Assembly: GCF_030013205.1 (NCBI RefSeq)
Contig: NZ_CP122648.1
Length of the DNA: 64,000 nt
Direction: 5' to 3' (one strand)
Source of the DNA: Escherichia coli
GTDB taxonomy: Bacteria; Pseudomonadota; Gammaproteobacteria; Enterobacterales; Enterobacteriaceae
Part shown: in pieces, positions 44,480-62,915 of the stretch
How positions within the stretch are numbered: the stretch's first letter is position 1
Layout: the number at the start of each line of letters is the position of its first letter
Notes under the pieces: model-generated
What the model saw: only the letters and a program-made list of their open reading frames with translations
Told to the model about the DNA's origin: nothing
Databases searched by the model: none
Translations under genes and position numbers: made by a program

Positions 44480-44526
44480 GATAAAAAAAACCCCCACATC
44501 ATGTGGGGGAAGACAGGGATGGTGTC
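44480..44526. repeat. prophage att site, fieF-side copy of 47-bp direct repeat
   Basis: GATAAAAAAAACCCCCACATCATGTGGGGGAAGACAGGGATGGTGTC, identical copy at 62846..62892; flanking bases diverge immediately outside. Confidence 0.85.
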
Positions 44527-44637
44527 ACAAAAAAGCACCTAACCTGATGATATAAATGGATTTATATCAAGCACTGTCCACATAGCGTCCACATCGACCA
44601 TAAATAAAGCCCCTCAACTGAGGGGCTATTTTTGTGA

Positions 44638-44856
44638 TCACATCCACATAATTTGCTGCCCTGACGGCAACGGGTGCGGCCTCACGGCGTGGACTTCTCC
44701 CGGCTTCACGATGTATCGCTGTACCGACTCATAAGTGATGAACGTGGCGCTGCAATTCACGTTCTGACACTGGTGATAACGCTCTTTTGTCGTGTCAGTG
44801 ATATAGCGACTTGTACGCGCATGTGCGGCATGCTGGCATAAAGGACAATGAAACAT
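44638..44856 (-). CDS. ogr: late gene transcriptional activator Ogr (C4 zinc finger)
   Basis: ORF trimmed to MFHCPLCQHAAHARTSRYITDTTKERYHQCQNVNCSATFITYE… (72 aa). Confidence 0.9.
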   Translation of the reverse strand: MFHCPLCQHAAHARTSRYITDTTKERYHQCQNVNCSATFITYESVQRYIVKPGEVHAVRPHPLPSGQQIMWM

Positions 44857-44937
44857 CGCGAGCACCTCTTCCGGTTTTGTTGATGGTGCCATTTTAGTTA
44901 ATTTACCCTTATAAAACAAACAGATAAAAACAAAACA

Positions 44938-46101
44938 TCACTCATCATCTTCTGTTTCGTTCTCCACATCAGAAAGCCTGACCTCAAGCTCTAAGGACGT
45001 CGTGAAGCCGCTATTATTCAGAAAATGTGTCACCTTAGTGATTGTCCAGTCCTGCTCGTCTATGACGCGCTTAAAGCCTGATACTTTGACCGGCGTTTCC
45101 GTGTAAATATCTGCCCGACCGGTAGCCAGACTGATGGAAAACTCCGCAACGCCCCGTTGCAGCTTATCCCACTTCGCCTGAGCGGCGCGCATGGCCTGCG
45201 CTTTCGTGGCATATACCGTGGTCAGGGCAAAAACGTTGTCAGCTTCACCGGCCATGTATTCACCTTCGCGCGCTTCCGGTACTTTTGGCGCTTTCTTCTG
45301 CGTGACTGGTTTCGCTTTCGGGTGCTCCAGTGCGCGCAGGTGTTTTTCTTTCTTTTTGCGTTTCAGTTTTACCTTCTGCTTTTGCGGCTTCGGGTCTTTG
45401 GTGTGAAGCCACTTTGCCGTTACGCCGGTATAGGCTCCACGGTCAGCAATCGCAAAATGGTGGCGGTCGCCGTCGCTGCGGGTTATGGTGACCTGCGGGA
45501 TTTTTTTACCGCTGGCCGTCACCCCCTGCCCCGCTTTGAGAAACAACAGTTTTCCCATTTTTACCGAGACCTCACCGCCGTTGCGTTCTGCAAGACGGGT
45601 CAGGAATTTCGCATCAGACTCCTGCGACTGGTCGATGTGCGGAATTTTAATTCCGGCCAGTGACGGAGCGACACTGGCTTCCAGCCTGTTACGGGAGGCT
45701 ATCGCCTCAACAATCGCACCGAGCGTGGTGTCATGCCATGAGCCTTCCCGGCGGGAATTGAGCGTCCCGCGAAAATCTGCACTCCGGGCGCGGATGGTGA
45801 CCACATCCGGTGCGCCCCGGTGTTCAACCTCATCAACGGTAAATTTCCCTTTGCATACCAGGGCAAAACCTTTCCAGCCGATATACACCGTCAGGACAGC
45901 GCCACGAACCGGCAGCCCGACCTGCCCGTCGGCATCGTTCAGTTCAATATCAAGCTGGTCAGCCTCAAAGCCCCGGTTATCCGTCAGGGTCATGCTCATC
46001 AGACGGTCGCTGATATTGCCGGTAATATCCCTGCTGTCGAGCATCAGCATGTAATCCGGCGTCAGCGTACTGCCTGCATCAAATGTCAGCGTATCCAGCA
46101 T
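44938..46101 (-). CDS. D: tail protein D
   Basis: 387-aa ORF in the P2 D position (between U and ogr). Confidence 0.8.
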   Translation of the reverse strand: MLDTLTFDAGSTLTPDYMLMLDSRDITGNISDRLMSMTLTDNRGFEADQLDIELNDADGQVGLPVRGAVLTVYIGWKGFALVCKGKFTVDEVEHRGAPDVVTIRARSADFRGTLNSRREGSWHDTTLGAIVEAIASRNRLEASVAPSLAGIKIPHIDQSQESDAKFLTRLAERNGGEVSVKMGKLLFLKAGQGVTASGKKIPQVTITRSDGDRHHFAIADRGAYTGVTAKWLHTKDPKPQKQKVKLKRKKKEKHLRALEHPKAKPVTQKKAPKVPEAREGEYMAGEADNVFALTTVYATKAQAMRAAQAKWDKLQRGVAEFSISLATGRADIYTETPVKVSGFKRVIDEQDWTITKVTHFLNNSGFTTSLELEVRLSDVENETEDDE

Positions 46102-46580
46102 TATCCCGCCCCCGTCATACCCGTGAATCTGGTCGCCATATTGCCGGCCTTACCGATGAGCGACTCCGCCTGTTTACCGATATCGCCATAAAGCGCGGCC
46201 AGTGATTCATCAACGCGGGTGAGCGACAGCGTAAAATCAATTTTTCGGGGTGTGCCATCTGCAAAGAAAATACTCCCTGTTTCACTCACCTTGCTGATGA
46301 CATACATGCCGTAAATCATTCCGGTGCCATCCAGCAACGGCCACGCCCGGCCTTCCTCTGCCATCAGTCTGAGCGTGGTCATCGTCAGCTTGCCGCCGGT
46401 CAGTTCGGGATAAAGCACACCGGCAAGCGTCATGTTTTCCTCGCCAACACCGAGAAACTGGTAGGCATCCCGTTTACCGATACGGGAATTTGACGGCCAG
46501 CGATAATCAGATTCACGCTGCATGGTCTGGTGTGGCAGCGTCTGGCGCATAAAAACAAACATACCTAACGCGAGCATCAT
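46101..46580 (-). CDS. U: tail protein U
   Basis: 159-aa ORF; start overlaps D stop (ATGA-type coupling). Confidence 0.8.
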   Translation of the reverse strand: MMLALGMFVFMRQTLPHQTMQRESDYRWPSNSRIGKRDAYQFLGVGEENMTLAGVLYPELTGGKLTMTTLRLMAEEGRAWPLLDGTGMIYGMYVISKVSETGSIFFADGTPRKIDFTLSLTRVDESLAALYGDIGKQAESLIGKAGNMATRFTGMTGAG

Positions 46581-46594
46581 TTTTCGTCACCTCC

Positions 46595-48142
46595 TTAACC
46601 GTCATGCATCATGCTGGCACGGGCGCGCGCACGTTTATCCCGCTCGTATTTTTCGAGCGCATCCTGTAACTGGCGGTCAAGCTGTGTCCCCGGCGCAGTA
46701 CCACCCGTCAGGCTGATGTGATATTCGTTTTTACTCTGGTCTACATAAGAGCGGCCAGCCGGTGCCGTGACCGGCTGATAAGCCTGATAGCCTGCATAAG
46801 AGCTGGTCGCCGGAATATAACCACCGGTGCCATACGTGGCGGCATGAGTTCTGGCGGCGGTCTGGTCAAGTGTGTCTGACTCTTTGTTGATAACACCGAG
46901 TTTTTCCAGTACCCAGTCAATACCGCTGCGCAGTTTGTTGAACGCATTAAGCGGCAGCATCAACGCGTCAGCCAGTGCCTGCCCGAACATGACGCCCGAA
47001 TCACGGCAACGGTTCAGGGTGTCCTGGGTGGCTTTGACCGGGGCAATCAGGTTTTTAAACCACTGCCACGCGGCCTGTAACTTTTCACCCAGCCAGTCAA
47101 ACAGCGGCTTAAGTGGCGTGAACAGTTCCCCCACCGGCGCAAATGCTGCTTTCAGCCCTTCAACCACACCGCCAAAGAATGCGCTGACAGGCTCCCAGTA
47201 TTTACGGATAAGCAACGCCCCGGCGACAATGGCGGCCACCACGGCCACAACCGGCCAGCTAATCGCCCCGATGGCCGTCATAACAGCACTGCCAACCGTC
47301 GTGAAGATTGCCCCCATTGCGCCTGCTGCCGCAATGATGGCATTGATGCCGGTGATAACCGGCCAGGCTACAAGACCAATTGCACCGATGATGCCAGTAA
47401 GCGCCAGTGCGCCACCGGCAATGATGCCGATAGTTGCCGCCAGTGATTTGTTTTTCTGTATCCAGCCGTCGAGTTTTAACACATACTTTGTGGCCGTCTG
47501 CGTGAGCTTACGCAGTGCGCCTTCCTGCTGGTCAAACAGGTCAGTCCCCACCGCTTCATAAGCGGACTGAAACTCCTTAAAGTCACCGCCGAGGTTGTCC
47601 TGCATGATTTTAACCAGCTCTTCCGTTTTACCGTCTGAGGCTTTCAGCGTGGCGGTCAGCTTATCCAGTTTTCCGCTTGCAGCCGCTGCCAGTAAAACGT
47701 TCGCTGATTTCAGGGCTTCCTCACCAAAAATGGTTTTAAGGTATTCCCCCTTCTGAGACGTTCCCAGCTTGTGTTTATCAAAGCTGACCTGAATCTCTTT
47801 CAGAATGGTGAACAACGGACGCATATTTCCCTTTTTGTCCGAGGTTTTAACGCCAAGCTCTTTGAGTGCTTCCCATGCTTTCCCTGTCGGAGCCTGTAAT
47901 CGGGTGACAACGGCACTACTCCCCGTACCCAGCATGGAGCCGATGCCGCACACCGCAGGCAGTGACAGGTCAGGAAACTGCACCAGAACAACACCGGCAA
48001 CCATCGAGACAAAACCACCGAGCAACATGCGCCCGATAAACAGACGCGGGGTGATGGGTTCACCACCGGCAAGCACCTTGCCGACAACAATCAGCACCCC
48101 AATCATGAAAAGCGACAGGACGCTTTTTTCTTCTGCTGTCAT
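46595..48142 (-). CDS. in-frame fusion: N-terminal holin (Y)-like membrane segment joined to C-terminal tape-measure (T) fragment
   Basis: 515-aa ORF starts 4 bp inside the X stop (Y position) with hydrophobic holin-like helices (SVLSLFMIGVLIVVGKVLAGG…) and ends just before U (T position) with Ala/Gly-rich tape-measure-like sequence; far too short for an intact T. Confidence 0.65.
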   Translation of the reverse strand: MTAEEKSVLSLFMIGVLIVVGKVLAGGEPITPRLFIGRMLLGGFVSMVAGVVLVQFPDLSLPAVCGIGSMLGTGSSAVVTRLQAPTGKAWEALKELGVKTSDKKGNMRPLFTILKEIQVSFDKHKLGTSQKGEYLKTIFGEEALKSANVLLAAAASGKLDKLTATLKASDGKTEELVKIMQDNLGGDFKEFQSAYEAVGTDLFDQQEGALRKLTQTATKYVLKLDGWIQKNKSLAATIGIIAGGALALTGIIGAIGLVAWPVITGINAIIAAAGAMGAIFTTVGSAVMTAIGAISWPVVAVVAAIVAGALLIRKYWEPVSAFFGGVVEGLKAAFAPVGELFTPLKPLFDWLGEKLQAAWQWFKNLIAPVKATQDTLNRCRDSGVMFGQALADALMLPLNAFNKLRSGIDWVLEKLGVINKESDTLDQTAARTHAATYGTGGYIPATSSYAGYQAYQPVTAPAGRSYVDQSKNEYHISLTGGTAPGTQLDRQLQDALEKYERDKRARARASMMHDG

Positions 48143-48145
48143 GCG

Positions 48146-48349
48146 TTACTCCCACAGATTGACAGTTTCAGCCACGGGCGCGGTCTGAACGTCGGGCAGT
48201 TCGACGGCGGTGCCGTGCGGCAGCACCGCGCCCAGTTCAGCCAGTCCCGGATTTGCGGCGAGCACGGCTTCGACCACGCCCTCAGTGCGCCCGTAATACC
48301 GGACACAGATGGCGTCGAGCGTGTCGCCCTGTAGCGCAAAGGTCTTCAT
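48146..48349 (-). CDS. X: tail protein X
   Basis: ORF trimmed to MKTFALQGDTLDAICVRYYGRTEGVVEAVLAANPGLAELGAVLPHGTAVELPDVQ… (67 aa). Confidence 0.85.
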   Translation of the reverse strand: MKTFALQGDTLDAICVRYYGRTEGVVEAVLAANPGLAELGAVLPHGTAVELPDVQTAPVAETVNLWE

Positions 48350-48858
48350 CAGATTTGACTCACGATGCAGCGCGGCTTGTCCTGGATGCGCGCCACCGCC
48401 CAGCGCATATCCCGCCACAGCTCATCAATGGTGCTGTCAATGCTGTCGGCCTTCTTGTCGCCTTTCGCACTGGCATCCACGCCGCGGTAACGCTCATAAA
48501 GCGACGCGGTCGCCATCGCACACACAGCGCGCTCGTAGTAAAAAACTTTGATGCTTTCACCGTCGATGTCGTCCGCCGGAACGTCCGCCAGACGCGTAAA
48601 ACCGGCGGCAATTTTCTGTTCGCGGTACTCGTACAGCTCCGCATTCGTTTCCGCCATGCCTGACTTGATGGCCTCACGCAGGCGGGCGGGGGCGACGGTC
48701 TGCTCAAGGCGCATACGTTCCCGGACACGCTTCGGGTCGATATCGGGAAAAAAGAACGTGTTTTTAATCACCGGCTCGTCGCCTGCCGGTTGCGGGATGA
48801 CCACCGTACCCTCACCGGACACGGGAGCCTCCTTTCGCGGAATAATCAGCGTCATCAT
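48349..48858 (-). CDS. L: capsid completion protein L
   Basis: ORF trimmed to MMTLIIPRKEAP (169 aa). Confidence 0.8.
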   Translation of the reverse strand: MMTLIIPRKEAPVSGEGTVVIPQPAGDEPVIKNTFFFPDIDPKRVRERMRLEQTVAPARLREAIKSGMAETNAELYEYREQKIAAGFTRLADVPADDIDGESIKVFYYERAVCAMATASLYERYRGVDASAKGDKKADSIDSTIDELWRDMRWAVARIQDKPRCIVSQI

Positions 48859-48957
48859 GACTACCTCTGAAAAGTCGGGCGGTGGACGCCGGTGCAGTGT
48901 CAGGTGATTCACCCTCACTGACCGGCGTGCCGCCCTGGCGCGGGGCGCATTCGGTTG

Positions 48958-49701
48958 TTAACTGGCTTTCTTTTTCGGGCGTCCACGTTTTGCCGGTGTC
49001 ACGCTCCGGGTCTTACGCGGGGTACGGGTGGCCGCTTTGGGCTGCGGCTCCGGCTTCGGTTTCAGCTCCCGCTCCAGTCGTTCAATCTCTTTTTTGACGC
49101 CTGCCTGACAGTCGAGCTGTGTCGCACGTTGCAGGTGAGCCAGCGCCCCTGCGGCATCACCAGCGTCACGCAGAAACAGACCGGTGATTTTGTGCAGTTT
49201 TGCGCGCACTTCATCAGGCATGTCAGCCGTGGCGGTCAGTTCGAGGGTGTCCATCAGCAGGCGGGGATCCACAGACTCACCGGCAGCGTGAGCGCGCATG
49301 GCCGCAAGCGCCACCTCCTCGGTGAACATGTACGGCGGGGTGCGGCGGTGTTTACCCGGCATGGTCAGACCGTACTTCAGGGCATAACGGGCAATCTCCA
49401 GCGCACCGGCAATATCGCCGGTATCCAGACGCCACAGCATGACCGTCATCAGAATGTCATCCTGTGCACCTTTGCCCTGCTCCAGCACGCCGTTCACCCA
49501 CGGCAACCAGAACGGCAGCAGTTCGCGTTTTTTCGCGGCCTTCAGCTCTTTTGAATAAATCGCTTTCAGTGTGCGCTGGTCTGCGGCGAGCTTAACCAGC
49601 ATCTGCTCATAGACAGTTGCATGTCGCAGCGGGGCGGCTTCCCGCTGCGCGGTCATCGCTGCCGAGACCCGCATCATGTGGCGCTGTGCGGGACTCGTCA
49701 T
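48958..49701 (-). CDS. M: terminase endonuclease (small) subunit M
   Basis: 247-aa ORF in the M position between L and N. Confidence 0.8.
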   Translation of the reverse strand: MTSPAQRHMMRVSAAMTAQREAAPLRHATVYEQMLVKLAADQRTLKAIYSKELKAAKKRELLPFWLPWVNGVLEQGKGAQDDILMTVMLWRLDTGDIAGALEIARYALKYGLTMPGKHRRTPPYMFTEEVALAAMRAHAAGESVDPRLLMDTLELTATADMPDEVRAKLHKITGLFLRDAGDAAGALAHLQRATQLDCQAGVKKEIERLERELKPKPEPQPKAATRTPRKTRSVTPAKRGRPKKKAS

Positions 49702-49704
49702 CGG

Positions 49705-50778
49705 TTACGCTCCCGGCTCTGCGGTCGCCCTGGCCGGTGTGGAGAAATCACCGACCTTAATTTTTTCCACCAGGCAACCGGCGGCGTAGTCTTCCACCAC
49801 GTAATCAATGTTCATTGACTCGTAGTTCTCCACGCGGTCGAGTTTCGGGTTTTCCTCAATCACGCGGCGATGGCTGTCATCCATGTAGTAGATGGACAGG
49901 TTTTCCAGCTTCGTGATGAGCATCGCATCCGCCGGGAAGTACGGGACGCGTACCGCCGGCAGGTTACCGATGCGTTTCTGGCTGATGATGACGTCAGCGG
50001 CCAGCATTTCGCTGTTGTCCTGCTCTTTGTTAACGATGGGGAAATACTTGTCCGCCAGTAGCTGACGCCCCACAATCACCACAAGGTCAGGGTCTTCCTG
50101 ATACCACGGCTCAATCAGGTTGTTGGTCGCATCCATCACCAGTGCATCAAGGCTGGCATAATCACCGCCCTTACCCACGCGGATAACCTCAGAGGTGGTG
50201 CGGCCTTCCTCGTCAGTGACCTTGCTCATCACACGCGCCGGGGCTTCATTGCGGTATTTCTGCAGCCAGCCAACCGCCACATCCTGCAGCATCGGATTGC
50301 TGCTGCGGTCAGAGGTTTCGGCACGCTTCACGCCGTTAAAACCGGCCATGATGAAATCAAGGGACTGGCGTTTGATAATGGCGTTACGGATACGGAGCTG
50401 GAAATCCTGATAACGCGCCCACAGGTCAAGCGTTTTGTAGCGGATATAAAAATCGAAGTTAATCTGGTCGCATTCGTACTTGTTAGACGCCAGCTTCGAG
50501 AAGTCCTTCGGCTGACGCTCGGTGCCACCGGCGGTGTCGGTGGTGCTGGCGATGGAGCCGGTGACACCGATACCAATTTTTTCCCCTTTCATTTCGCTGA
50601 CCGGCACAATGTTGATGCGGGTCAGAAAATCAGAGGACTCCTGCATGGTGTTCATCAGGGTCTGGGTGACCGACGGTTCAACGGTGAATTTTTTCGACAC
50701 ATCACCGGCGTCGATGCCGTTCAGTTCGGCAACACGGGACAGGTAGGCATTAAATTTAAAGCGGGTTTCCTGGCGCAT
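49705..50778 (-). CDS. N: major capsid protein N
   Basis: 357-aa ORF. Confidence 0.85.
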   Translation of the reverse strand: MRQETRFKFNAYLSRVAELNGIDAGDVSKKFTVEPSVTQTLMNTMQESSDFLTRINIVPVSEMKGEKIGIGVTGSIASTTDTAGGTERQPKDFSKLASNKYECDQINFDFYIRYKTLDLWARYQDFQLRIRNAIIKRQSLDFIMAGFNGVKRAETSDRSSNPMLQDVAVGWLQKYRNEAPARVMSKVTDEEGRTTSEVIRVGKGGDYASLDALVMDATNNLIEPWYQEDPDLVVIVGRQLLADKYFPIVNKEQDNSEMLAADVIISQKRIGNLPAVRVPYFPADAMLITKLENLSIYYMDDSHRRVIEENPKLDRVENYESMNIDYVVEDYAAGCLVEKIKVGDFSTPARATAEPGA

Positions 50779-50836
50779 AGTTTTTCCTGAAATTAAGGGT
50801 TAATCGTGAAGGTTTTTCCGGACTGACTGACGCCGG

Positions 50837-51691
50837 TCAGCAGTTCGTCATCAGGGCGTCACCGCCACCGCCGGTGGCCTTGCTGCGGCGCTGCTGGGTC
50901 AGACTTTCGGTGTGGTCGAGACTGTTTTTCAGGCGGGTGAATGCCTGGCTGGTTTCATCCGCCCTGTCAGTCACCTCCTGCTTAAGTGCGGAAAAGGCGG
51001 TTTCCATCTCAGCGAGGCGCTGCTCAGTGGCGCTCAGCTTTTCCTGCACATGTTCAGCAACAGCGGTCACCGCTTCATGCACATCATTCAGACGGGCGTC
51101 ATCGCTGGCCTGTTTGCGGCCAAAAATGGATTTCACCTTTTCGGTCAGGGCGGTGAACACGGTTTCAGGCAGGTCTTCAAATTCCAGCTCAACAGGCGTT
51201 GCCACTGAAATCAGGTTTTCAGGGCTTAATTTGAAGCGGTTCAGGGGGTTGTGTTTTGCCGTGCGGCAGAATTCCAGGTATTCCGTGCCGAGGCTTGCCG
51301 GGTCATCGGTGACGGCCAGACCCACCAGATAACATTTGCCGGTATTGGCAAAGTTCGGCTGAATTTCCATTGAGGTATAGACCTTCTGCGCGGCCTTGTT
51401 CATCGCGATAAGGTCATCGGTCGGGGTGATTTTCGCAAACAGCGCCCATTTGCCTTTCAGCGCCGAATCGTCATCAATCTTTTCGGCCTTCAGTTCAACC
51501 ACATCGCCATAACGTTTAAAAATACCGTCAGGCAGGATGCCGCGCAGATGTTCCAGGTTAATGCGGCAACCATAGACGCGCGGGTCAAAGGTTTCAGCCA
51601 TTTCCTGAATATCCTGCGCACTGATGACACGCCCGTCACAGGTGTCACCCTCAACGCCGATACGAAAGAATTTTGAGACTTTTTTTGCCAT
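50837..51691 (-). CDS. O: capsid scaffolding protein O
   Basis: ORF trimmed to MAKKVSKFFRIGVEGDTCDGR (284 aa). Confidence 0.8.
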   Translation of the reverse strand: MAKKVSKFFRIGVEGDTCDGRVISAQDIQEMAETFDPRVYGCRINLEHLRGILPDGIFKRYGDVVELKAEKIDDDSALKGKWALFAKITPTDDLIAMNKAAQKVYTSMEIQPNFANTGKCYLVGLAVTDDPASLGTEYLEFCRTAKHNPLNRFKLSPENLISVATPVELEFEDLPETVFTALTEKVKSIFGRKQASDDARLNDVHEAVTAVAEHVQEKLSATEQRLAEMETAFSALKQEVTDRADETSQAFTRLKNSLDHTESLTQQRRSKATGGGGDALMTNC

Positions 51692-51864
51692 TGTCAGGAG
51701 TCCTGAATAGTGATTAGAGGAGTCACATGTCGGCATCAGTTTCCCGACGATGCGCATCCTCCGCCATCAGTCCCGGATGGCTTATCACTGACACAACAGC
51801 ACCTTAGCGAATCGCGGGGCGCGACTCAGTAGGCTTGCCGTGTATTCATCACGGCGAGGTATTC
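51692..51864. promoter_or_regulatory. divergent phage late promoter region (O-operon and P-Q operon; Ogr-dependent)
   Basis: intergenic region between divergent O and P; call is by position in the P2 map, no operator motif confidently identified. Confidence 0.4.
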
Positions 51865-54671: not shown

Positions 54672-54676
54672 ACATC

Positions 54677-54698
54677 GCCGCCTGCGGGCGGCTTTTTT
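54677..54698 (+). terminator. rho-independent terminator after Q
   Basis: GCCGCC-TGCG-GGCGGC followed by TTTTTT. Confidence 0.6.
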
Positions 54699-54840
54699 AC
54701 ACCCTGTCATCACGCCCTCACACGCTCACCACCGCACAAAACACCCCGCAGACACACCAACGCCTCAACGGGCAGACTAAACGCCGTCACGACGCGCTCA
54801 GACGCTGAAAAAATAAAATCAGCACCACCGCCAGCGCGCA

Positions 54841-54859
54841 GTGCTTTCCCCGCCTCGCC
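54841..54859. other. cos site (19-nt cohesive-end sequence)
   Basis: GTGCTTTCCCCGCCTCGCC is the reverse complement of GGCGAGGCGGGGAAAGCAC, the P2/186 cohesive end as I recall it; lies between Q and the cargo, as in the P2 map. Confidence 0.55.
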
Positions 54860-54987
54860 CGCCCGCTTCATGGGTCGGTTTTAATGCAGGTGCATGAACA
54901 CACTGGAGACGCACCAGTACTGGCGGTGGTCACGTAGATCCGCCCCTTAAAAGCCATGCAGAATAATGCAACTATTGCGGGCGTCGG

Positions 54988-55407
54988 CTAATCATCTTCT
55001 AAAGGTGGAATTTTGATGCCACTAATTAGCAGTACTTTCCGGTATGCCTCAAAAATAATGTTGTGTGTTTTTTGTAAATCATCGAGCATTTTTTGCCGTC
55101 CTGCTGGGGTATCTTTGGCAAAATTATGAGCGCGAAAAAAATCATGTGCCAAGTAGTTTCTGGCTTTAAGAGCATCTGACACATACTCCAGTGTATCAGC
55201 ATCCTCCACCATCCTAGACTTCAGTGCGTAATTCAATTTACCCAGCGTGTATTTATCCATTTCTAAAAACTGTTTTTTCAGCGACTGTATATCTTTCCCC
55301 TGACTCATATCATACTCAGTGATAACATTTATCAACTCAGTCTCCAGTAATTGAGCTGCTTCCGAAGCATAACCAAATTTCCAATAAACCGTATCAAGCG
55401 TCACCAT
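54988..55407 (-). CDS. hypothetical cargo protein with R-x4-H (HEPN-like) motif
   Basis: 139-aa ORF in AT-rich DNA, codirectional with and downstream of the HNH gene; contains ARNYLAHDFF. Confidence 0.6.
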   Translation of the reverse strand: MVTLDTVYWKFGYASEAAQLLETELINVITEYDMSQGKDIQSLKKQFLEMDKYTLGKLNYALKSRMVEDADTLEYVSDALKARNYLAHDFFRAHNFAKDTPAGRQKMLDDLQKTHNIIFEAYRKVLLISGIKIPPLEDD

Positions 55408-55498
55408 ATAATCTATTCCCCATATAACAAATCACACCCAAAATTAAATCATAACACATAATTAAATCTAACGCCTCTCTGCACCAGAAGAAGTCATG

Positions 55499-56830
55499 TT
55501 AACGCTTATCATGGAACTTTTTCCATTTTGTCATCAACTTTCCAGCATCAAGTTCTACATGATGCGGTTGTAGAGTTTTACCCTCAAACATAGTTTTGTG
55601 GATACAATTAATAGAGAAATGAACCGTTAAGTCCTCTGGATTAATCCCCATTAATCCTTTATCAAACATTCGGTGTAAACTTACTTCAAGTAACAGGCCA
55701 TTAGATGTGTTATTATTTGCTGATTCTGTTATTGCTTCAATATGTGCGGCTTCCAATATCCCCTCTGGCAATGGATAGCCAGTAATAGCACATCTGCCAT
55801 TGAAGTTATCCCAAACACGGCGTTTGAAATCAGCTTGATCTCCAGCATGACGGACTTTGTGAGTAACCTCGACTGTTCGTCCTGTAGCACAGGTATCGTT
55901 TGCGGCCTTGAAAGGATTAATTAGACTTTCATTAATGGCTATATCCGTTCCATCCATGATAAGAGATATTTCATTATTGGGTTCGGGTGATGTTAATGGA
56001 CTTATGTACTGATTGCTTAAAAAAGTCATACTAGATTCTTCATCAGTCGCGAGTTTCCACGCTTCTGATTGTGTCATTGTTAGCAATGCCGTTTGATAAA
56101 CTTGCTTATTAAAATAACGTTTATCTTTCTTGTAACTCCCCATATTAATAGTACTAGATTTAATCGGAAGTGTTTTATCACCAATTAGTAGATCACGTAT
56201 TTCTACAGTCTCTTCTAAGGTATCAATAGGAGCTACTATAGGGTTAGTAAACGGGTTATCTACATGATCTACGTGGTTGTGTCGTAAATGCCACTCTATA
56301 GCACTATCTTTTATATGTATCTCGCAGACAGGGCATACAATAAGCCCCATAGATGTTACAGGTAGCTTTTTGCCACCGATTAAGCGTAATGTATTTGCAT
56401 TCTGGTTATGTACTTTCTTTTGGTTCTGTGTCAGTACACTACGCTTAGCCTCTAAACGGGTCGGAATCTTAGCAAGATTAAGCGATTTACGGCTCTCTTG
56501 TCTCTCAAGATCATAGATCCGAATCCCTGCTTCAGTTTTGATTTTTGTCCACATAGAGATAGAACTAAGGAATTTATGTCCATGTACTTTTTCATAATCA
56601 GCATAAGCTTGCAAAGTAGCAGTGGAACTATCTAATCCTTTTTTACGGAGTGCTGTATATTGCTGAAAAAGATTAATAGCATGAGCTGTAATAGAGCGCC
56701 TATTCTCTATAATTTGCGCTTTTTTTGCTGCTTGTTCTGCTTGCAATGCTTTTTGTTCAGGGGTAAGCGACTTCTTTTTGGCTTTCTTGGTTCTTTTCTT
56801 ACTCAAAGTTTTCTTACTGTTATTGTTCAT
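55499..56830 (-). CDS. HNH nuclease-domain cargo protein (Lys-rich N-terminus, C2H2-like zinc finger, C-terminal HNH)
   Basis: 443-aa ORF; N-terminus SKKTLSKKRTKKAKKK; CPVCEIHIKDSAIEWHLRHNH; C-terminus GRCAITGYPLPEGILEAAHIEAI…SNGLLLEVSLHRMFDKGLMGI resembles the HNH endonuclease core; AT-rich. Confidence 0.7.
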   Translation of the reverse strand: MNNNSKKTLSKKRTKKAKKKSLTPEQKALQAEQAAKKAQIIENRRSITAHAINLFQQYTALRKKGLDSSTATLQAYADYEKVHGHKFLSSISMWTKIKTEAGIRIYDLERQESRKSLNLAKIPTRLEAKRSVLTQNQKKVHNQNANTLRLIGGKKLPVTSMGLIVCPVCEIHIKDSAIEWHLRHNHVDHVDNPFTNPIVAPIDTLEETVEIRDLLIGDKTLPIKSSTINMGSYKKDKRYFNKQVYQTALLTMTQSEAWKLATDEESSMTFLSNQYISPLTSPEPNNEISLIMDGTDIAINESLINPFKAANDTCATGRTVEVTHKVRHAGDQADFKRRVWDNFNGRCAITGYPLPEGILEAAHIEAITESANNNTSNGLLLEVSLHRMFDKGLMGINPEDLTVHFSINCIHKTMFEGKTLQPHHVELDAGKLMTKWKKFHDKR

Positions 56831-56939
56831 TTTGCAAGCCTTTAATCTAATTCATGGAAAGGGGCATTCACTTGCCCTGTATCCAGTAAACTGACATAAC
56901 ACGATATAAGCAAGCTCCGTAATTCTTTCATGTTAATCA

Positions 56940-59258
56940 TCAATGGTCCATTGTGAATCCCGGCCACTCATCAGCGACCGGATACGTGAATTTTTTACCG
57001 TCGTAATTTACAGTCGCGCCACGCGCCAGCGCCTCAAGCTCCCATCTCTGAGGCCTGATACCGTTCTGAGCAAGGTCTACGCGGATACGGGTAATTTGCA
57101 TTCGTTCTGACCGGGTCAGTCTGGCCGATGGTGCAATTTCATGCGGTTTTAACGGGCTTCCGTTTCTTTGCTGACGGTTTGGCGTTCTCAGGTCGTATTT
57201 TAATGCGCCCCTGAGCGCCCTCACGACCTCCGGTTCATTCCATTCAATAACACCGTCATCAACCAGATTAAGCACTGCTGCGGCGTGCTCAGAAGGAGTG
57301 GGAGCCGGTAACGAAGTATCACCGCTGGTGAGCTTTCCACAGTTATTGACAGGACTCCGAGGCGCGGCGATGCCGCTTTTTAAAGTCAAAGGCTCAACGA
57401 CCGGAACTTTCGGCACAATGCGCCAGTCCGTCGTTCTGGTGATATGAATATGACGCGCGCCGAGATGCGGCGCGTAAATGCCGACCACTCTCTCGACTTC
57501 TTCCTCGTATTCGTTAACGTCATCCGACGGGCTACGGGCGACCCTGACAGTCTGACAATCGCGCGGGACATTTGCCCCGCCCTGCGCGCTGATATACAGC
57601 GCAAAATCGCCACTGTCTGCGGCGGCGCGTGCAGCCTCCACGCGTTCGTCAAATTCATCAGCAATGCTGACGCCGCGAGGCAATTTACGTAGCTCACGGT
57701 AAGCTCCCATTGTCGGCAGGCCAACCGTTTTAAATTGCGGGATGCGCCACGTTGATGCCCATGCGGTAACAGCCGCCGCAGTATCTTTCAGCGGTCTGCC
57801 GGTATCGTTATCGAGCTGACCATCCAGTGCATAGCCGTCGATATTTTTTGAAATGTATTTCGCGATATATCCCGCAGCACCGCCCCGGTTAAGGTGTTTT
57901 GCCTGAAAACGGTTTCGCGCGGCTCCTCTTTCGTCGCCATCCTCTTTGAGCGCATAGCGACGCATGATTTCGATAATCTGGTTACGCTGGCGTGGATTAC
58001 AAAAAAGCATCATATGCCAGTGCGGCGTTCCGTCGTGGTGTGGCTCGACGACTCGCAAACCGTAGACCTGTAAATCATTATCCTTGAATGCCGTGCGCAT
58101 CAGGCTCCAGATACGGCAGAGATAACGCTGCGCATCCTTTGGATTAAATGCCTCATCATTCCAGCCGTGATTAAGCTGGACGGTTTTATTTTCGCCTTTT
58201 CCGACCTGACGTGTCGGGTGATACTTTGACGGCGCGGTAAGCGTGATAAACATCCCCACATCACCCTCTGAGGCGGCGTAACGCTCAATACCGGCAATGG
58301 TGTTCATCAGCTCCATCCGGCGAATTTCAGGATTAGAAATACTGCCCATCACCTTACTGATAAGGTCGATGCGCTCGCCGGTTTCCCTGTTTTCAAGGTC
58401 ACACGATTTAAGAAATTCCAGATTTGCCTGGCGGCGCGCACGCACATCACGAATGGCGTGTTTACTGGCATAAGGAGAACGGTCTTTATTGACCTCCCCG
58501 ACAGCTATCAGTAACGCTTCATGCCAGCGCATACGCTGGCCTTTAAGCTGATGAGTCCACCACTCATCGTTAAACAGACGGGCAATTGCAGAATATGCCT
58601 GCCTCGTGGTCATCTGTCCTTTACGGTATTTTTTCCAGTAGAGAGGGGAAATATTGAAAGCACGTGCAGCACCAGCAACATGACCATAGAGGTGAGCCTG
58701 CGCCTCATCCGTAAACAGCGATTCTTTTTCGCCATGCGCATCCACCCAGGCATCGCTGAGTTCCTCATACATCATGAAAAGCTGCGATGAGATACGGGCA
58801 GCAAACTTTTTCAGCTCCTTGTCATTCATTCCCGGCAGGCGCGCATAGTGGTCACGCTCTGCCAGAAACAGTAACGACGCGTCGGTGTTCATTTCATGGC
58901 GCTGATTCACACGCTCAATGCGCGGCCATAAACGACGCTGAAAAGTGGATGTGAGGAAATAAAACCCGTGCACCGGGCTTTTATTGCGCCGGATGTAGTC
59001 ATAGCGTGAAGTAAACAGCGAGCGCAAAAAGTAAGGCAGGCGGTTAATCGTGGATAAAACACCTTGCACCTGACGCATCTCGTCACGTGTAAGGGGTCTT
59101 TCGCGCCCGACAGCCTCGCGTGGCGCGTTCCATGCATAAGCACCTGTAAACGCCTTACCGGTGCCTGCGGCAAATGCTGACGGAGGGACAAAACGTCCGG
59201 AGGCTTTAACGGCCATGTGAGCCAAAAGCCTCTGAACAACGCTTGCTGAGTTGCTCAA
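56940..59258 (-). CDS. A: replication initiation endonuclease A (rolling-circle Rep)
   Basis: 772-aa ORF in the P2 A position; true start may be a few codons downstream. Confidence 0.85.
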   Translation of the reverse strand: MSNSASVVQRLLAHMAVKASGRFVPPSAFAAGTGKAFTGAYAWNAPREAVGRERPLTRDEMRQVQGVLSTINRLPYFLRSLFTSRYDYIRRNKSPVHGFYFLTSTFQRRLWPRIERVNQRHEMNTDASLLFLAERDHYARLPGMNDKELKKFAARISSQLFMMYEELSDAWVDAHGEKESLFTDEAQAHLYGHVAGAARAFNISPLYWKKYRKGQMTTRQAYSAIARLFNDEWWTHQLKGQRMRWHEALLIAVGEVNKDRSPYASKHAIRDVRARRQANLEFLKSCDLENRETGERIDLISKVMGSISNPEIRRMELMNTIAGIERYAASEGDVGMFITLTAPSKYHPTRQVGKGENKTVQLNHGWNDEAFNPKDAQRYLCRIWSLMRTAFKDNDLQVYGLRVVEPHHDGTPHWHMMLFCNPRQRNQIIEIMRRYALKEDGDERGAARNRFQAKHLNRGGAAGYIAKYISKNIDGYALDGQLDNDTGRPLKDTAAAVTAWASTWRIPQFKTVGLPTMGAYRELRKLPRGVSIADEFDERVEAARAAADSGDFALYISAQGGANVPRDCQTVRVARSPSDDVNEYEEEVERVVGIYAPHLGARHIHITRTTDWRIVPKVPVVEPLTLKSGIAAPRSPVNNCGKLTSGDTSLPAPTPSEHAAAVLNLVDDGVIEWNEPEVVRALRGALKYDLRTPNRQQRNGSPLKPHEIAPSARLTRSERMQITRIRVDLAQNGIRPQRWELEALARGATVNYDGKKFTYPVADEWPGFTMDH

Positions 59259-59481
59259 CCTGCACGTTTAAATCAGCAAAAGACTTTGCGCTTCCGGTCA
59301 GAATATCGTGATGCATCAGGCCTGAAACGAGCTGGCTTAATTTCGGGTAATAACCAACCACCGCCAGCCATTCCTGACCGGCGTTTTTACCGCTTTCAGC
59401 TCTCTTTTTCTCGTGGAGAATAAACTGAAAGCTGTCACTGGTAACGACATAACGTTCGCCAATTTCAATACGAATACTCAT
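59206..59481 (-). CDS. hypothetical early-region protein (P2 orf83-like position)
   Basis: 91-aa ORF, tightly packed codirectional array between B and A. Confidence 0.45.
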   Translation of the reverse strand: MSIRIEIGERYVVTSDSFQFILHEKKRAESGKNAGQEWLAVVGYYPKLSQLVSGLMHHDILTGSAKSFADLNVQVEQLSKRCSEAFGSHGR

Positions 59482-59702
59482 GCCGTTCTCCGGTAATGTT
59501 TGTTTTTTGCTTCAAAGACTGACTGACAGGAAACACAACGCGTGGCTGACGGGTAAGCCGCACGACGGGCAGCAGGTATTGGCGCGTCACACTCTTCGCA
59601 AACCAGCGCAGAAGCACCGCAATGTTTTACCCTTGCCGCGTTAATCTGGCGCTCCAGTAATTCAGCCTGTTGTTCCTGAATAAAATCTACGTTGTCCGGC
59701 AT
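59478..59702 (-). CDS. TraR/DksA-type C4 zinc-finger protein (P2 orf82-like)
   Basis: 74-aa ORF with CEEC…CVSC zinc finger (CGASALVCEECDAPIPAARRAAYPSATRCVSCQ). Confidence 0.6.
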   Translation of the reverse strand: MPDNVDFIQEQQAELLERQINAARVKHCGASALVCEECDAPIPAARRAAYPSATRCVSCQSVFEAKNKHYRRTA

Positions 59703-60007
59703 TACCAGTTCCTTTTGTCGTTCAGTTTTTTAAATTCATCAGCGCAATAGCTGGCGATTTCTGTCGTTAATTTCGTCAGTTCATCCACGGAGGAAATTTG
59801 CTTGTGAAATACAGCGCGTTTAACAAGTAAATTGACCACATCAGACAGGAGGTTTAATTCACTCTGATAAATCGCGATAACAGATTCAGTTATTTCGCGT
59901 TTTTCTTTATCAAGACCAAGTTGAATAAGAGACAAATCGCCATTTTTCATAACGGCGATTTTTAAGGCATTGTTCAGTAAAACAACTGAACGAGAACAGG
60001 ACATCAA
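59702..60007 (-). CDS. hypothetical early-region protein
   Basis: 101-aa ORF; start/stop overlaps with neighbours. Confidence 0.45.
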
Positions 60008-60261
60008 AGCACCTCCCCGCGAGACAATCCGATGTTGTGAAATTTTTCCGACTCCTGACTGAGCAGCTCGACTATCTCCACGCGGGATAACTCCGCCTTT
60101 GTGATGTGGCGAATCATGGCGTCAAGATGAGAAGAAAAGCGCGTCGCTGCATCGGCCTGTGCTTCGGTTCTGGCCTGTTGCAGCAGTAATGCGTATTTAC
60201 CGCACTGATTTTCAGAAACTGTATGCATGACTTTCTCCAGGCAAAAAGAAGCCCCGCACAA
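60004..60261 (-). CDS. hypothetical early-region protein
   Basis: 85-aa ORF; translational coupling to the next ORF. Confidence 0.45.
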
Positions 60262-60291
60262 TTAAGTGCGTTAAAAACTCTGGTTAATTAC

Positions 60292-60798
60292 TTAATGCAG
60301 ATATTGCTCTGGTTTTACCGACGTCAGAATTGTCGGTGCATACTCAAACAGGCTGAATAATTCACGTAATGCACGGAATAAAGCATCACGCCAGTAACAT
60401 GACTCTTCATTAATTCGCCAGTATGGCTGGTTGAATTCTTTTTCAGTCAATCCGGCATGCATAAATAAAGTGCGACGCTGACTGACTGTTAAAAAACTAA
60501 TATATGCATACTCACTTGCGCCAACCTGACGGCGTTTTGAGAATGCCCCACGCAATTCATCAATTGCACAAACCAGCCGTTCACGTTCGACGTCGTTCAT
60601 TTCTTCAAAACGCATCGTTGCGTGACGCTGTTTTAACTGCGCATGAAAGCAAACCGTTAGCCGTTCGCGCTCCATCATCTGATTATAATAATCACATGTA
60701 TCCTGCCAGCGAGGAACGGCAAGATGCTTACCAATTATCCGGCGCATAGCTGCTGGCTGTTTTTCAACGAGATTGAGCGTCATCACTGTCATTTCCAT
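60292..60798 (-). CDS. B: replication protein B (helicase loader-like)
   Basis: 168-aa ORF in the P2 B position downstream of cox. Confidence 0.7.
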   Translation of the reverse strand: MEMTVMTLNLVEKQPAAMRRIIGKHLAVPRWQDTCDYYNQMMERERLTVCFHAQLKQRHATMRFEEMNDVERERLVCAIDELRGAFSKRRQVGASEYAYISFLTVSQRRTLFMHAGLTEKEFNQPYWRINEESCYWRDALFRALRELFSLFEYAPTILTSVKPEQYLH

Positions 60799-60961
60799 AC
60801 CCTCCGGCTTTTCAGAAAGGTCAGAGCCTTTTTTAACGGACTCTGTTTTTTGGTGCGGATAATGATTCCCTTACGCCCCTTACCGTGGGTGATGGTGAAG
60901 TCAATCGCCCTTGGGCTTTCGTTACGCAGTAACTGAGCAATACAACGCGGTTCACTCATAA

Positions 60962-61234
60962 TCACAACCCCATCCACAAAAGCCATGCATCACGCTGTTC
61001 AACTGGTCGGTTATAAAACGCCTCTCGTACAGCGCGATTAAACTCTGGAATGAAAACCCACTTCTCACCGACACGAGCGTTCGGCTTACTTGGATCACGA
61101 AGCTCAATAACTGGCAATTTATTCTCTTTTACCATCTTGACTACAGCCGTTTCTGGCTTACCAAGTAACTCTGCAAACTTAACCGTATGTACCGCATCAA
61201 TCGGGTACTGAATCACATAGTCATTGACTTCCAT
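60962..61234 (-). CDS. cox: Cox excisionase / early-operon regulator
   Basis: 90-aa ORF ending …WLLWMGL, divergent from the C repressor. Confidence 0.7.
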   Translation of the reverse strand: MEVNDYVIQYPIDAVHTVKFAELLGKPETAVVKMVKENKLPVIELRDPSKPNARVGEKWVFIPEFNRAVREAFYNRPVEQRDAWLLWMGL

Positions 61235-61386
61235 TGATTAGCCCTTTTTGCTTTCGTGTTACCCTTATTAGATCCAGTCCCTTCTAGGTCGCCCCTGTCC
61301 TTTCTAGGGACTGGCTAACACACTCAAAAGGTCACCAATACACAACCTTTTGACGGGAATATAAGTCACCAATAGGTTACTGTCAA
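61235..61386. promoter_or_regulatory. immunity switch region (divergent early promoter and repressor promoter with operators)
   Basis: 152-bp intergenic region between divergent cox and C; inverted repeats (…CCAGTCCCTTCTAGG…CCTTTCTAGGGACTGG…). Confidence 0.5.
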
Positions 61387-61680
61387 ATGCAGACATTCGA
61401 AAAACTGAAAGCGATTAGGAAAGCAGAAGGCTTAACACAGGCGAAATTCAGCGAAATTAGCGGGATAGCTCTAGGAACAGTCAAAAATTACGAAAGTGGG
61501 CATAAAGACCCTGGTCTCAGCATCGTTATGCGAGTCACAAATACGCCTTTATTTAAAAAATATACGCTCTGGTTAATGACTGGTGATACGTCACCACAAG
61601 CTGGTCAGATCGCGCCGGCTCTCGCACACATTGGGCAAAAACCAACAGAATCAGACCACTCCGAAAAACAGACTGGTTAA
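61387..61680 (+). CDS. C: immunity repressor C
   Basis: 97-aa ORF with HTH (EGLTQAKFSEISGIALGTVKNYESG) and …KYTLWLMTGD…GQIAPALAHIGQ resembling P2 C. Confidence 0.8.
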   Translation: MQTFEKLKAIRKAEGLTQAKFSEISGIALGTVKNYESGHKDPGLSIVMRVTNTPLFKKYTLWLMTGDTSPQAGQIAPALAHIGQKPTESDHSEKQTG

Positions 61681-61719
61681 CACTCTATAAACATTATATT
61701 TTCACCATTTGTTACCAAG

Positions 61720-62730
61720 ATGGTGAATACAGCGTCAGAGGGCTTTCTTATGTCAATTAAGAAGCTCGATGATGGACGCTATGAAGTGGACATTAGACCT
61801 CGCGGTCGCGACGGAAAACGCATCCGCAGGAAATTTGAAAGAAAAGCTGAGGCTGTAGCATTTGAGCGATACACAATCGCCTACGCCAGCCAGAAAGAAT
61901 GGGCAGGTCAGCGAGCAGATCGCAGAACTTTGAGTGAGTTGCTGGACATCTGGTGGAAATATCACGGGCAAAACCACGAGCATGGAACAAAAGAGTTTAA
62001 TCATCTGCTCAAAACCATCAGCGGCATAGGTGATATACCAGTGAGCCGGATGAGCAAAAGAGCTTTGATGGATTATCGTTCCATGCGACTACGTGATGGT
62101 ATCAGTGCCGCAACGATAAACCGTGACATGTACCGATTATCCGGCATGTTCACAAAATTAATTCAATTGGATGAATTTTCCGGGCAACACCCAATTCACG
62201 GACTGCCGCCACTGGCGGAGGCCAACCCTGAAATGACGTTCCTGGAAAAAGCAGAAATCGAAAAACTGTTAAATGTTTTGGATGGTGATGACTTACTTGT
62301 CGCACTTTTATGTCTGAGCACTGGAGGAAGATGGACGGAAGTTGCCACGCTAAAACCAGCACAGATTACAAATTGCAGGGTTACCTTCCTGAAAACCAAA
62401 AACGGTAAAAAGCGAACCGTGCCGATTTCTGAGGAACTGGAGAAAAAAGTTAAAGAGGAGGCCAGCGCTAAATTATTCAAAGTTGATTATGAGAAGTTTT
62501 GCGGGATTTTACGCAGAGTGAAGCCAGATATACCACCCAATCAGGCAACCCACATCCTGCGGCATACATTCGCAAGCCATTTCATGATGAATGGGGGCAA
62601 TATAATCGCACTGCAACAGATTCTGGGACATGCGAGCATTCAGCAGACGATGGCCTATGCGCACCTTGCGCCTGACTACCTGCAAAATGCCGTCGCGCTG
62701 AATCCTCTAAAAGGCGGAGTGACGTTATAA
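61720..62730 (+). CDS. int: tyrosine integrase
   Basis: 336-aa ORF; C-terminal catalytic motifs (HILRHTFASHFMMNGG…LGHASIQQTMAYAHL); alternative start at 61750 (MSIKKLDDGRYE). Confidence 0.9.
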   Translation: MVNTASEGFLMSIKKLDDGRYEVDIRPRGRDGKRIRRKFERKAEAVAFERYTIAYASQKEWAGQRADRRTLSELLDIWWKYHGQNHEHGTKEFNHLLKTISGIGDIPVSRMSKRALMDYRSMRLRDGISAATINRDMYRLSGMFTKLIQLDEFSGQHPIHGLPPLAEANPEMTFLEKAEIEKLLNVLDGDDLLVALLCLSTGGRWTEVATLKPAQITNCRVTFLKTKNGKKRTVPISEELEKKVKEEASAKLFKVDYEKFCGILRRVKPDIPPNQATHILRHTFASHFMMNGGNIIALQQILGHASIQQTMAYAHLAPDYLQNAVALNPLKGGVTL

Positions 62731-62845
62731 ATTTCCCTTCTGAGTGTCCACATAGTGTCCACACTCTCAGAACTTTGTAGCCCTTCCAGTCCCTTATAGG
62801 TTTTCTTAAGTTACTGTTTTCTTACGGAAACTGATGTAAGTGATT

Positions 62846-62892
62846 GATAAAAAAAACCCCCACATCATGTGGGGGAAGACAGGGATGGTGTC
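62846..62892. repeat. prophage att site, cpxP-side copy of 47-bp direct repeat (also the cpxP terminator)
   Basis: identical to 44480..44526; on the minus strand reads as GC hairpin CCCCCACATGATGTGGGGG followed by TTTTTTTT, 24 bp after cpxP stop. Confidence 0.85.
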
Positions 62893-62915
62893 TATGGCAA
62901 GGAAAACAGGGTTTA

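Follow-up and report, generated by a model that had tools for sequence, protein, structure and literature searches.

The segment at positions 44480–62892 of the window, by which we mean the whole 64-kb stretch of DNA that was analysed, is almost certainly a Wφ-type P2-like (Peduovirus) prophage located at cpxP that is defective through an internal deletion. A Wφ-type prophage between cpxP and fieF is an ordinary, well-explained case, and the site has already been published: Wφ attaches at MG1655 coordinate 4104392, L-413C has the same core (PMC3448106 Table 1), and the insertion-site table compiled for E. coli W holds the entry "cpxP-fieF: Wphi1 (P2)" (PMC3032704). Beyond annotation the significance of the element is small; what it adds are exact attL and attR coordinates for a Wφ-type prophage at a published site (Table 1).

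Table 1. Positions in the window of the prophage features and the neighbouring host genes.
Feature	Position	Strand	Remarks
fieF	43499-44401	-	host gene, attL side; from the RefSeq annotation of the identical record and the empty-site comparison
attL core (47-mer copy 1)	44480-44526		minus strand: second cpxP/CpxQ terminator hairpin and U-run
P' arm	44575-44593	-	predicted Int arm repeats TGTGGACA (exact) and TGTGGACG (one mismatch), 11 bp apart
terminator-like hairpin	44608-44627		bidirectional; between ogr and attP/attL
ogr	44638-44856	-	late-gene activator
D, U	44938-46101, 46101-46580	-	tail genes, intact, 97-98% identity to Wφ
Y'/'T fusion ORF	46595-48142	-	in-frame holin–tape-measure fusion, 515 aa
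deletion junction	47926-47930		5-bp microhomology TACCC; the match to T runs up to 47930, that to Y begins at 47926
X, L, M, N, O	48146-51691	-	tail protein X, head completion, small terminase, major capsid, scaffold; all intact
P, Q	51865-54671	+	large terminase, portal; both intact
cos	54841-54859	-	reverse complement of GGCGAGGCGGGGAAAGCAC, the left end of the Wφ record
cargo pair	54988-56830	-	Q/A variable slot; low GC (~38%)
uncharacterised protein	54988-55407	-	cargo gene, 139 aa, without Pfam match
HNH_2-domain protein	55499-56830	-	cargo gene, 443 aa
A, orf83, orf82, orf81, orf80, B, orf78, cox	56940-61234	-	early operon, all intact
C	61387-61680	+	immunity repressor
int	61750-62730	+	tyrosine integrase; Pfam Int_N and Phage_integrase
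P arm	62745-62763	-	two predicted Int arm repeats, both exact TGTGGACA, 11 bp apart
attR core (47-mer copy 2)	62846-62892		3' part of the cpxP 3'UTR and terminator
CpxQ sRNA (cpxP 3'UTR)	62849-62906	-	58 nt; predicted from sequence and fold
cpxP	62916-63416	-	host gene, attR side, intact

Gene content, cargo and internal deletion

The retained genes follow P2 order (ogr-D-U-T…Y-X-L-M-N-O / P-Q / cos / cargo / A…B-cox / C-int). They are collinear with those of Wφ (Peduovirus Wphi, NC_005056) and phage 899, with protein identities of 92–100%. Over 326 aa, Int has 99.7% identity with its Wφ counterpart, and the Int of phage 899 is identical (100%). In the comparison with Wφ, the retained proteins other than Int, C, Cox and Ogr show 97–100% identity and, apart from the fused T and Y, are full length. 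C, Cox and Ogr are each 100% identical to the Wφ proteins; Ogr also scores 177.6 bits with profile NF007241 (cut-off 116), and the identity of C and Cox gives the element, by sequence, the C repressor/Cox switch of the Wφ immunity class. The A protein is the replication nickase, and the cos site has P2-type 19-nt cohesive ends, its flanks being 96% identical to the joined ends of Wφ. The element matches Wφ in its arm repeats, its order of genes, cos and the host site; with P2 it shares the overall genome layout, the order of the late genes, late control by Ogr, a C/Cox switch and the variable slot between Q and A, but the immunity class of P2 is a different one. A full-length sibling prophage is found at cpxP in ETEC-2265, with identical protein accessions for Int, C and Cox.

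The initial annotation described an 18.4-kb block of genes in P2 order. The gene order is indeed kept, but the block represents only ~55–62% of a P2-type genome and contains an internal deletion. Collinearity with phage 899 and with the PEC41 prophage is lost at the junction listed in Table 1. The PEC41 prophage has 11,430 bp more at this point and phage 899 ~14.96 kb more, so that at least 11.4 kb has been lost. Removed are K, lysA/B/C, R, S, V, W, J, I, H, G, FI, FII and E/E' along with the 5' portion of T, a loss that takes away the genes for lysis and for baseplate, fibres, sheath and tube; the element therefore differs from Wφ by the absence of a lysis and tail module of at least 11.4 kb. 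What is left of T is closer to T of the PEC41 prophage, which sits at another site, than to that of Wφ. In our reading, an illegitimate deletion at 5 bp of microhomology fused the holin gene Y to the tape-measure gene T after integration; the resulting defective prophage retains intact integration/excision, immunity, replication and head/packaging genes together with cos and the cargo pair. In RefSeq the fusion ORF appears as two pseudogenes (T "missing N-terminus", holin "missing C-terminus"), and these two notes are the only signal given there of a pig ETEC remnant without tail and lysis genes.

Neither a complete lysis cassette nor a complete tail module, as expected of a viable phage, is present. 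Since the lysis and tail genes are lost, the prophage is, as judged from its gene content, defective: it is predicted to be unable to build tails or to lyse the cell, and hence to produce no virus particles. It resembles in this respect the ogrK-D' remnant of E. coli K-12, another member of the P2 family with deleted morphogenetic genes that is still at its att site ("cyaR RNA … ogr-D' in K-12", PMC3032704). It is far less decayed than that remnant, however, having suffered a single deletion that spared int, cox, C, A, the head genes and both att sites. Six genomes of Belgian pig ETEC, out of 5426, are the only ones in which the deletion junction was found; they were assembled separately but all stem from a single study and a single pig ETEC lineage, and are thus independent for assembly only, not for biology.

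The Q/A slot differs from relative to relative. It holds the HNH pair here as opposed to mth and orf96/98 in Wφ, an exoribonuclease gene in phage 899, and genes for a DUF2975 and a Panacea-domain protein in ETEC-2265; at this position P2 has old and tin. For the cargo pair, PADLOC returned no curated defence system with matches above noise for all components; the hits were to generic HNH models (E 3e-11 and 2.5e-7) and, marginally, to PD-Lambda-3_B (E 0.0022). NCBIfam gave a sub-threshold match confined to the HNH region (33 bits versus a cut-off of 180). A homologue of the HNH protein with 65% identity is encoded beside a Gabija-like gene pair in Citrobacter. The pair probably has an anti-phage role and, lying in a P2 cargo hotspot, is a candidate for defence screening.

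These features bear on the possibility that the tail-less remnant has been kept selectively (domesticated) for its cargo, its Wφ-type immunity or its head genes, and is not the product of a recent neutral deletion. The intactness of all remaining genes, the position of the cargo in a slot whose contents vary between relatives and the Gabija-like neighbours of the Citrobacter homologue would all suit such a history. We nevertheless consider it unlikely: the deletion is limited to one lineage, the absence of other decay fits a recent event equally well, and the function of the cargo is putative, with PADLOC matches to generic HNH models only.

It is very improbable that we are dealing with an intact, inducible P2-like prophage that is merely small. 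The int, cox, C, replication, head and terminase genes and cos are intact and 97–100% identical to those of viable phages, but the lysis genes, endolysin included, and most tail genes are gone, T lacks its N-terminus and the holin its C-terminus, and viable relatives measure 32.7–33.8 kb as against 18.4 kb here. Moreover, a T/holin/X/L probe matches a single locus in the ETEC4079 chromosome, so no close P2-like helper is evident in that genome. Pairs of P2-like prophages are known to confuse assemblies, for example in E. coli W (PMC3032704), yet we give hardly any credence to the deletion being an assembly artefact caused by collapse between two similar prophages. The junction joins the non-homologous genes T and Y through 5 bp of identity, unlike a repeat collapse; it is identical in six complete assemblies of differing chromosome length; and the ETEC4079 record has only one T/holin-like locus.

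The attachment site and its empty counterpart

The ends of the Wφ-type prophage are defined by GATAAAAAAAACCCCCACATCATGTGGGGGAAGACAGGGATGGTGTC, an exact 47-bp direct repeat with both copies on the plus strand. The two copies, 18,366 bp apart from start to start, are the only ones in the 64-kb window, and identity ends immediately on either flank; the chance expectation for such a pair in 64 kb is ~1e-19. The initial annotation had reported perfect repeats bracketing the block, and its coordinates proved exact. It had also placed the rho-independent terminator hairpin of cpxP within the repeat: on the minus strand the 47-mer reads CCCCCACATGATGTGGGGG followed by eight T, and a terminator scan detects the hairpin in both copies.

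A synthetic empty site, composed of the fieF flank, one 47-mer and the cpxP flank, is uninterrupted in 4593 of the 5426 complete E. coli genomes, the best match being 100% over 655 bp and spanning fieF and cpxP. A single 47-mer between these two genes in element-free strains is what the initial annotation had proposed to look for. Likewise, a synthetic attP (int, 47-mer and ogr) is uninterrupted in the free P2-like phages fiAA91-ss (99.4%), phage 899 (99.1%) and Wφ (98.9%). The 47-mer itself is exact in Wφ (22550–22596) and in phage 899, and the core length of 47 nt is the one defined by the sequences compared here. Because both the empty site and the attP of free phages are contiguous, the 47-mers are the attL and attR of a site-specific integration. 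The same matches support the earlier view that integration rebuilt the 3' end of cpxP and parted it from fieF. The hairpin in the 47-mer is GC-rich and generic-looking, but the idea that the repeats are duplicated host sequence (a repeated terminator or REP-like element) unrelated to integration has practically no chance of being correct and is refuted by the empty-site, attP and Wφ/phage 899 matches: element-free genomes have exactly one copy, exactly at the predicted junction, the identical 47-mer lies between int and ogr of free phage genomes, and within the window it is confined to the two prophage ends.

The Pfam domains of Int and its identity to Wφ Int mark it as a tyrosine integrase of Wφ specificity. 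Its gene ends 115 bp from the cpxP-side repeat, in agreement with the initial annotation, which had a tyrosine integrase adjoining that repeat. As in an attP of the Wφ type, the core is identical to attB and is accompanied by two P2-type arm repeats per side; the TGTGGACA-type sites are a feature shared with P2 and correspond to the P2-type Int arm-binding consensus tgTGGaCa (PMC3448106 section 7). P2 itself attaches elsewhere, at MG1655 coordinate 2165238 (PMC3448106 Table 1). In the model we favour, the tyrosine integrase inserted a Wφ-type phage at its canonical attB, the 3'UTR/terminator of cpxP between cpxP and fieF, and recombination within the 47 bp common to attP and attB left one 47-mer at each prophage end. 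The Int-mediated exchange is expected to fall inside the hairpin dyad, and the element should still be capable of excision. The region upstream of fieF (44402–44479) is unaltered by the insertion, and fieF retains it behind the attL copy of the terminator. An int–core–cpxP junction like the present one occurs in 788 of 5426 complete E. coli genomes (14.5%); the cpxP–fieF site is thus occupied in ~15% of them.

CpxQ and the att core

The sRNA CpxQ is 58 nt long and has a 5' seed (PMC6755755); its length and position are also described in PMC9438474. Its 5' end was set here at a distance of 58 nt from the U-run; so positioned, CpxQ takes its first 14 nt from host DNA next to the core, and the remaining 44 nt, on the 3' side, belong to the 47-bp core. 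The duplicated sequence therefore comprises most of CpxQ in addition to the terminator, which extends the initial annotation without contradicting it. The small-RNA genes in which P2-family integrases insert thereby come to include one derived from a 3'UTR. At attR the sequence is the same as in the empty site, and with the 5' end so placed CpxQ is predicted to be rebuilt intact there. The attP brings in the 3' 44 nt of CpxQ with the terminator, such that the 3' end of cpxP, its terminator and the 58-nt CpxQ are reconstituted unchanged.

This arrangement is like that of phages which integrate at the 3' ends of tRNA, tmRNA or sRNA genes, where a long core covers the 3' part of the RNA and its terminator and the RNA gene is rebuilt, as with 186 in tRNA-Ile and Fels-2 and SopEΦ in ssrA (PMC3448106 section 7); rybB ncRNA and cyaR RNA are listed as P2-type sites (PMC3032704 insertion-site table). 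Unlike the targets of such phages, CpxQ is derived from a 3'UTR and cut from an mRNA, and is not a free-standing RNA gene. No link between the Wφ attB and CpxQ was found in the literature searched. The Wφ attB was reportedly first mapped by Karlsson et al. in 2006, and CpxQ is said to have been described later, in 2016.

One may speculate, although we regard it as a long shot, that Wφ-type phages use the Hfq-binding 3' module of CpxQ, which they have just downstream of ogr, for a phage-made chimeric sRNA. Read-through of the weak ogr terminator would then yield an RNA with the body of CpxQ in which a phage 5' end, AGGUGCUUUUUUGU, replaces the seed UUUUCCUUGCCAUA. Such a chimera might compete with CpxQ for Hfq or retarget it, and the choice of att site would amount to a tap into the envelope-stress regulon, beyond a safe landing pad.

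The CpxQ 3' module in question comprises 44 nt, terminator hairpin and U-tail included, and is present in both attP and attL.

The 47-bp core and the cpxP–fieF integration site

The window matches, at 100% identity, the chromosome of ETEC4079, a porcine ETEC strain from Belgium, in which RefSeq annotates 24 phage genes or gene fragments between fieF and cpxP. The initial annotation regarded this block as a prophage flanked by exact 47-bp direct repeats that hold the cpxP terminator. The 47-mer GATAAAAAAAACCCCCACATCATGTGGGGGAAGACAGGGATGGTGTC indeed occurs exactly twice within the window, in direct orientation, and the identity between the copies is exactly 47 bp, the adjoining bases differing immediately on each side; the chance expectation for such a pair in 64 kb is ∼ 1e-19. 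A terminator scan confirmed the hairpin in both copies, with an 8-bp GC-rich stem, a 3-nt loop and then eight T on the minus strand. The two junctions predicted by site-specific recombination were built in silico: an empty site (655 bp; fieF flank, one 47-mer and cpxP flank) and an attP (651 bp; int 3′ end, 47-mer and ogr side). The synthetic empty site gave a single unbroken match in 4593 of 5426 complete E. coli genomes (best 100% identity, annotated fieF and cpxP on either side), which is the element-free arrangement, with one 47-mer between the two genes, that had been anticipated. The synthetic attP gave a single unbroken int–ogr match in the free P2-like phages fiAA91-ss (99.4%), phage 899 (99.1%) and Wφ (98.9%), and the exact 47-mer is present in both Wφ (22550-22596) and phage 899. 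Because empty site and attP are each contiguous where predicted, a chance or purely host-derived repeat is ruled out, and the data support the repeats as products of integration between cpxP and fieF.

Int is 99.7% identical to its Wφ counterpart and 100% identical to that of phage 899, and contains the Int_N and Phage_integrase domains (Pfam). The C repressor, Cox and Ogr are 100% identical to those of Wφ; all other retained proteins are full length with 97–100% identity. Repeats matching the P2-type Int arm consensus (tgTGGaCa; PMC3448106) lie beside int and ogr, and the cos end sequence is also present (see table). A P4-type satellite or PICI is ruled out, as the element has its own P2 set of head, terminase, replication and int genes. 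The element is a Wφ-type P2-like prophage at the published cpxP–fieF attachment site. The Wφ site has been placed at MG1655 coordinate 4104392, with the same core in phage L-413C (PMC3448106, Table 1); in the genome paper on E. coli W, ‘cpxP-fieF: Wphi1 (P2)’ appears in the list of insertion sites occupied by prophages (PMC3032704), and an O157 study describes a 31-kb prophage between cpxP and fieF (PMC7609406). The same int–core–cpxP junction is found in 788 of the 5426 complete genomes (14.5%). Given these listings and occupied genomes, site and phage type are common and already described. The element is thus known in kind, and its overlap with the sRNA CpxQ and its uncharacterised HNH cargo are the sole points that might repay follow-up.

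In the metF–metL interval (15948-18763), RefSeq annotates a bifunctional metallophosphatase/5′-nucleotidase gene and a ‘cytoplasmic protein’ pseudogene with a frameshift. All else within window positions 1-43400 belongs to the ordinary E. coli core (frw, pfl, katG, met, priA, hslVU, glp, tpiA, pfkA).

Features of the prophage and its flanks (window coordinates)
Feature	Position	Strand	Remarks
fieF	43499-44401	-	Left of first 47-mer copy; RefSeq annotation
47-mer, attL	44480-44526		fieF side
Hrs1 (RF02628) matches	62849-62921 and 44483-44549	+	Opposite cpxP/CpxQ; sub-threshold
Int arm repeats, P2-type	44575-44593		Adjoin ogr; one exact and one single-mismatch copy
holin′–′T fusion ORF	46595-48142	-	515 aa, in-frame junction; two pseudogenes in RefSeq
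19-nt cos end sequence	54841-54859		Surrounding region 96% identical to joined Wφ ends
Cargo pair	54988-56830	-	443-aa protein and 139-aa protein
Int arm repeats, P2-type	62745-62763		Adjoin int; two exact copies
47-mer, attR	62846-62892		cpxP side
CpxQ (inferred)	62906-62849	-	UUUUCCUUGCCAUAGACACCAUCCCUGUCUUCCCCCACAUGAUGUGGGGGUUUUUUUU
cpxP	62916-63416	-	Right of second 47-mer copy; RefSeq annotation

Overlap of the core with CpxQ

CpxQ is a 58-nt Hfq-dependent sRNA that is cut by RNase E from the cpxP 3′UTR, nearly all of which it covers, and carries its seed at the 5′ end (PMC6755755; PMC9438474). Its position here was set by taking the 58 nt that end with the U-run, and the resulting RNA folds into a small hairpin and the terminator. 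The 3′ 44 nt lie inside the 47-bp core, and the 5′ 14 nt, with the seed, in host DNA beside attR. The initial annotation correctly placed the cpxP terminator in the core but overlooked that the core amounts to most of CpxQ. Since the core covers these 44 nt, cpxP, its terminator and CpxQ are restored unchanged at attR wherever strand exchange falls in the core; their sequences are indeed unchanged, as the proposed reconstitution of the cpxP 3′ end implies. At attL and in the free-phage attP, the same 44 nt follow a 5′ end of phage origin and lie downstream of ogr and its hairpin.

Integrases of the P2/186 family target tRNA, tmRNA and sRNA genes at their 3′ ends, the long core restoring the gene on insertion (PMC3448106, section 7), and the sRNA genes rybB and cyaR are among the listed insertion sites (PMC3032704). 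A Wφ-type core at CpxQ follows this known 3′-end habit. The Wφ site was mapped before CpxQ was described, and none of the papers examined connects CpxQ with the Wφ site or with prophage integration. The dyad symmetry of the hairpin may supply the two Int core-binding half-sites.

Rfam has no CpxQ family. Its only matches were sub-threshold ones to Hrs1 (RF02628) at both att copies, at 44.5 and 31.8 bits versus a gathering score of 56.4, and a weak STnc100 match on the ogr terminator. They are taken to reflect a conserved cpxP 3′ region and a hairpin of generic type rather than distinct RNA genes. Hrs1 is an Hfq-regulated sRNA whose Rfam model starts with an A-run and then a hairpin, resembling a terminator in reverse; for this reason the model may describe the CpxQ region in the opposite orientation.

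The sequence gives no sign that cpxP or fieF is disrupted. We infer that transcription of cpxP continues to stop at the gene's own terminator. The 78 bp upstream of fieF (44402-44479) are retained, and two terminators on the minus strand, the ogr hairpin and the copy at attL, presumably protect fieF from read-through out of the phage. The hairpin that separates ogr from the att core (44608-44627) has a terminator score on either strand, and in the circular phage would stop transcripts of ogr as well as int. In the prophage, transcription of int would instead proceed into the attR core, whose plus strand lacks a T-run.

Internal deletion and its distribution

The assignment of the 18.4-kb block as a prophage in P2 gene order stands, but the initial annotation overlooked that it is defective, its tail and lysis genes being deleted. 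Viable relatives measure 32.7–33.8 kb. The element is collinear with phage 899, and with a full-length, near-identical prophage of the pig strain PEC41, except for a single break, at which the T (tape-measure) side matches to 47930 and the Y (holin) side from 47926, with only TACCC common to both. The missing segment is 11,430 bp versus PEC41 and about 14.96 kb versus phage 899, which has extra cargo near its fibre genes. Lost are the endolysin gene, lysA/B/C, R, S, V, W, J, I, H, G, FI, FII, E/E′ and the 5′ 45% of T; the resulting ORF joins the N-terminal membrane segment of the holin to the C-terminal 55% of the tape measure. The remnant may still excise and replicate, as it retains int, cox, A, B and the two att sites in intact form. 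It is capable of neither tail formation nor lysis. A T/holin/X/L probe matched the ETEC4079 chromosome in one place only, so no second, close P2-like prophage that might act as helper is evident there.

The T–holin junction was found in only six genomes, all of Belgian pig ETEC. The human strain ETEC-2265 carries a sibling prophage at cpxP whose Int, C and Cox have the same protein accessions as here and whose tail and lysis module is complete. The tail-less, lysis-less form is confined to one pig ETEC lineage, and we read the deletion as a recent illegitimate event in that lineage.

The PEC41 prophage (NZ_CM168023.1 1736792-1777222) occupies a different site, adjoining trhP with ogrK at the end. 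Its U protein and HNH cargo pair are the same as those of the window element, and its T is 99.8% identical. This indicates that P2-like phages exchange modules, late genes and cargo being combined with different int/att modules.

Cargo gene pair in the Q/A slot

Between Q/cos and A lies 1.8 kb of cargo with about 38% GC, versus 54–60% in the phage late genes. The slot is variable, holding the unrelated mth/orf96/orf98 in Wφ, an exoribonuclease gene in phage 899 and genes for a DUF2975 and a Panacea-domain protein in the ETEC-2265 prophage. The 443-aa cargo protein carries an HNH_2 domain at its C terminus (PF13391, aa 347–397) and shows a near-invariant C-C-H-H motif (C166/C169/H181/H186) in its family alignment. 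PADLOC returned generic HNH matches only, and a PDB sequence search only a marginal HNH-domain match, to the HNH endonuclease 6yex (E 0.025). An AlphaFold2 model from a 27-sequence alignment (pLDDT 51, pTM 0.24) was too poor to use. The 139-aa protein matched no Pfam family, its only match being an unannotated PHROG, and the pair matched no system among curated defence systems. Relatives of the 443-aa protein are restricted to Enterobacterales; a Citrobacter homologue (65% identical) is located in a chromosomal island, directly next to a Gabija-like pair (AAA_15/OLD-TOPRIM and UvrD). By position and association, a role of the cargo in defence is plausible.
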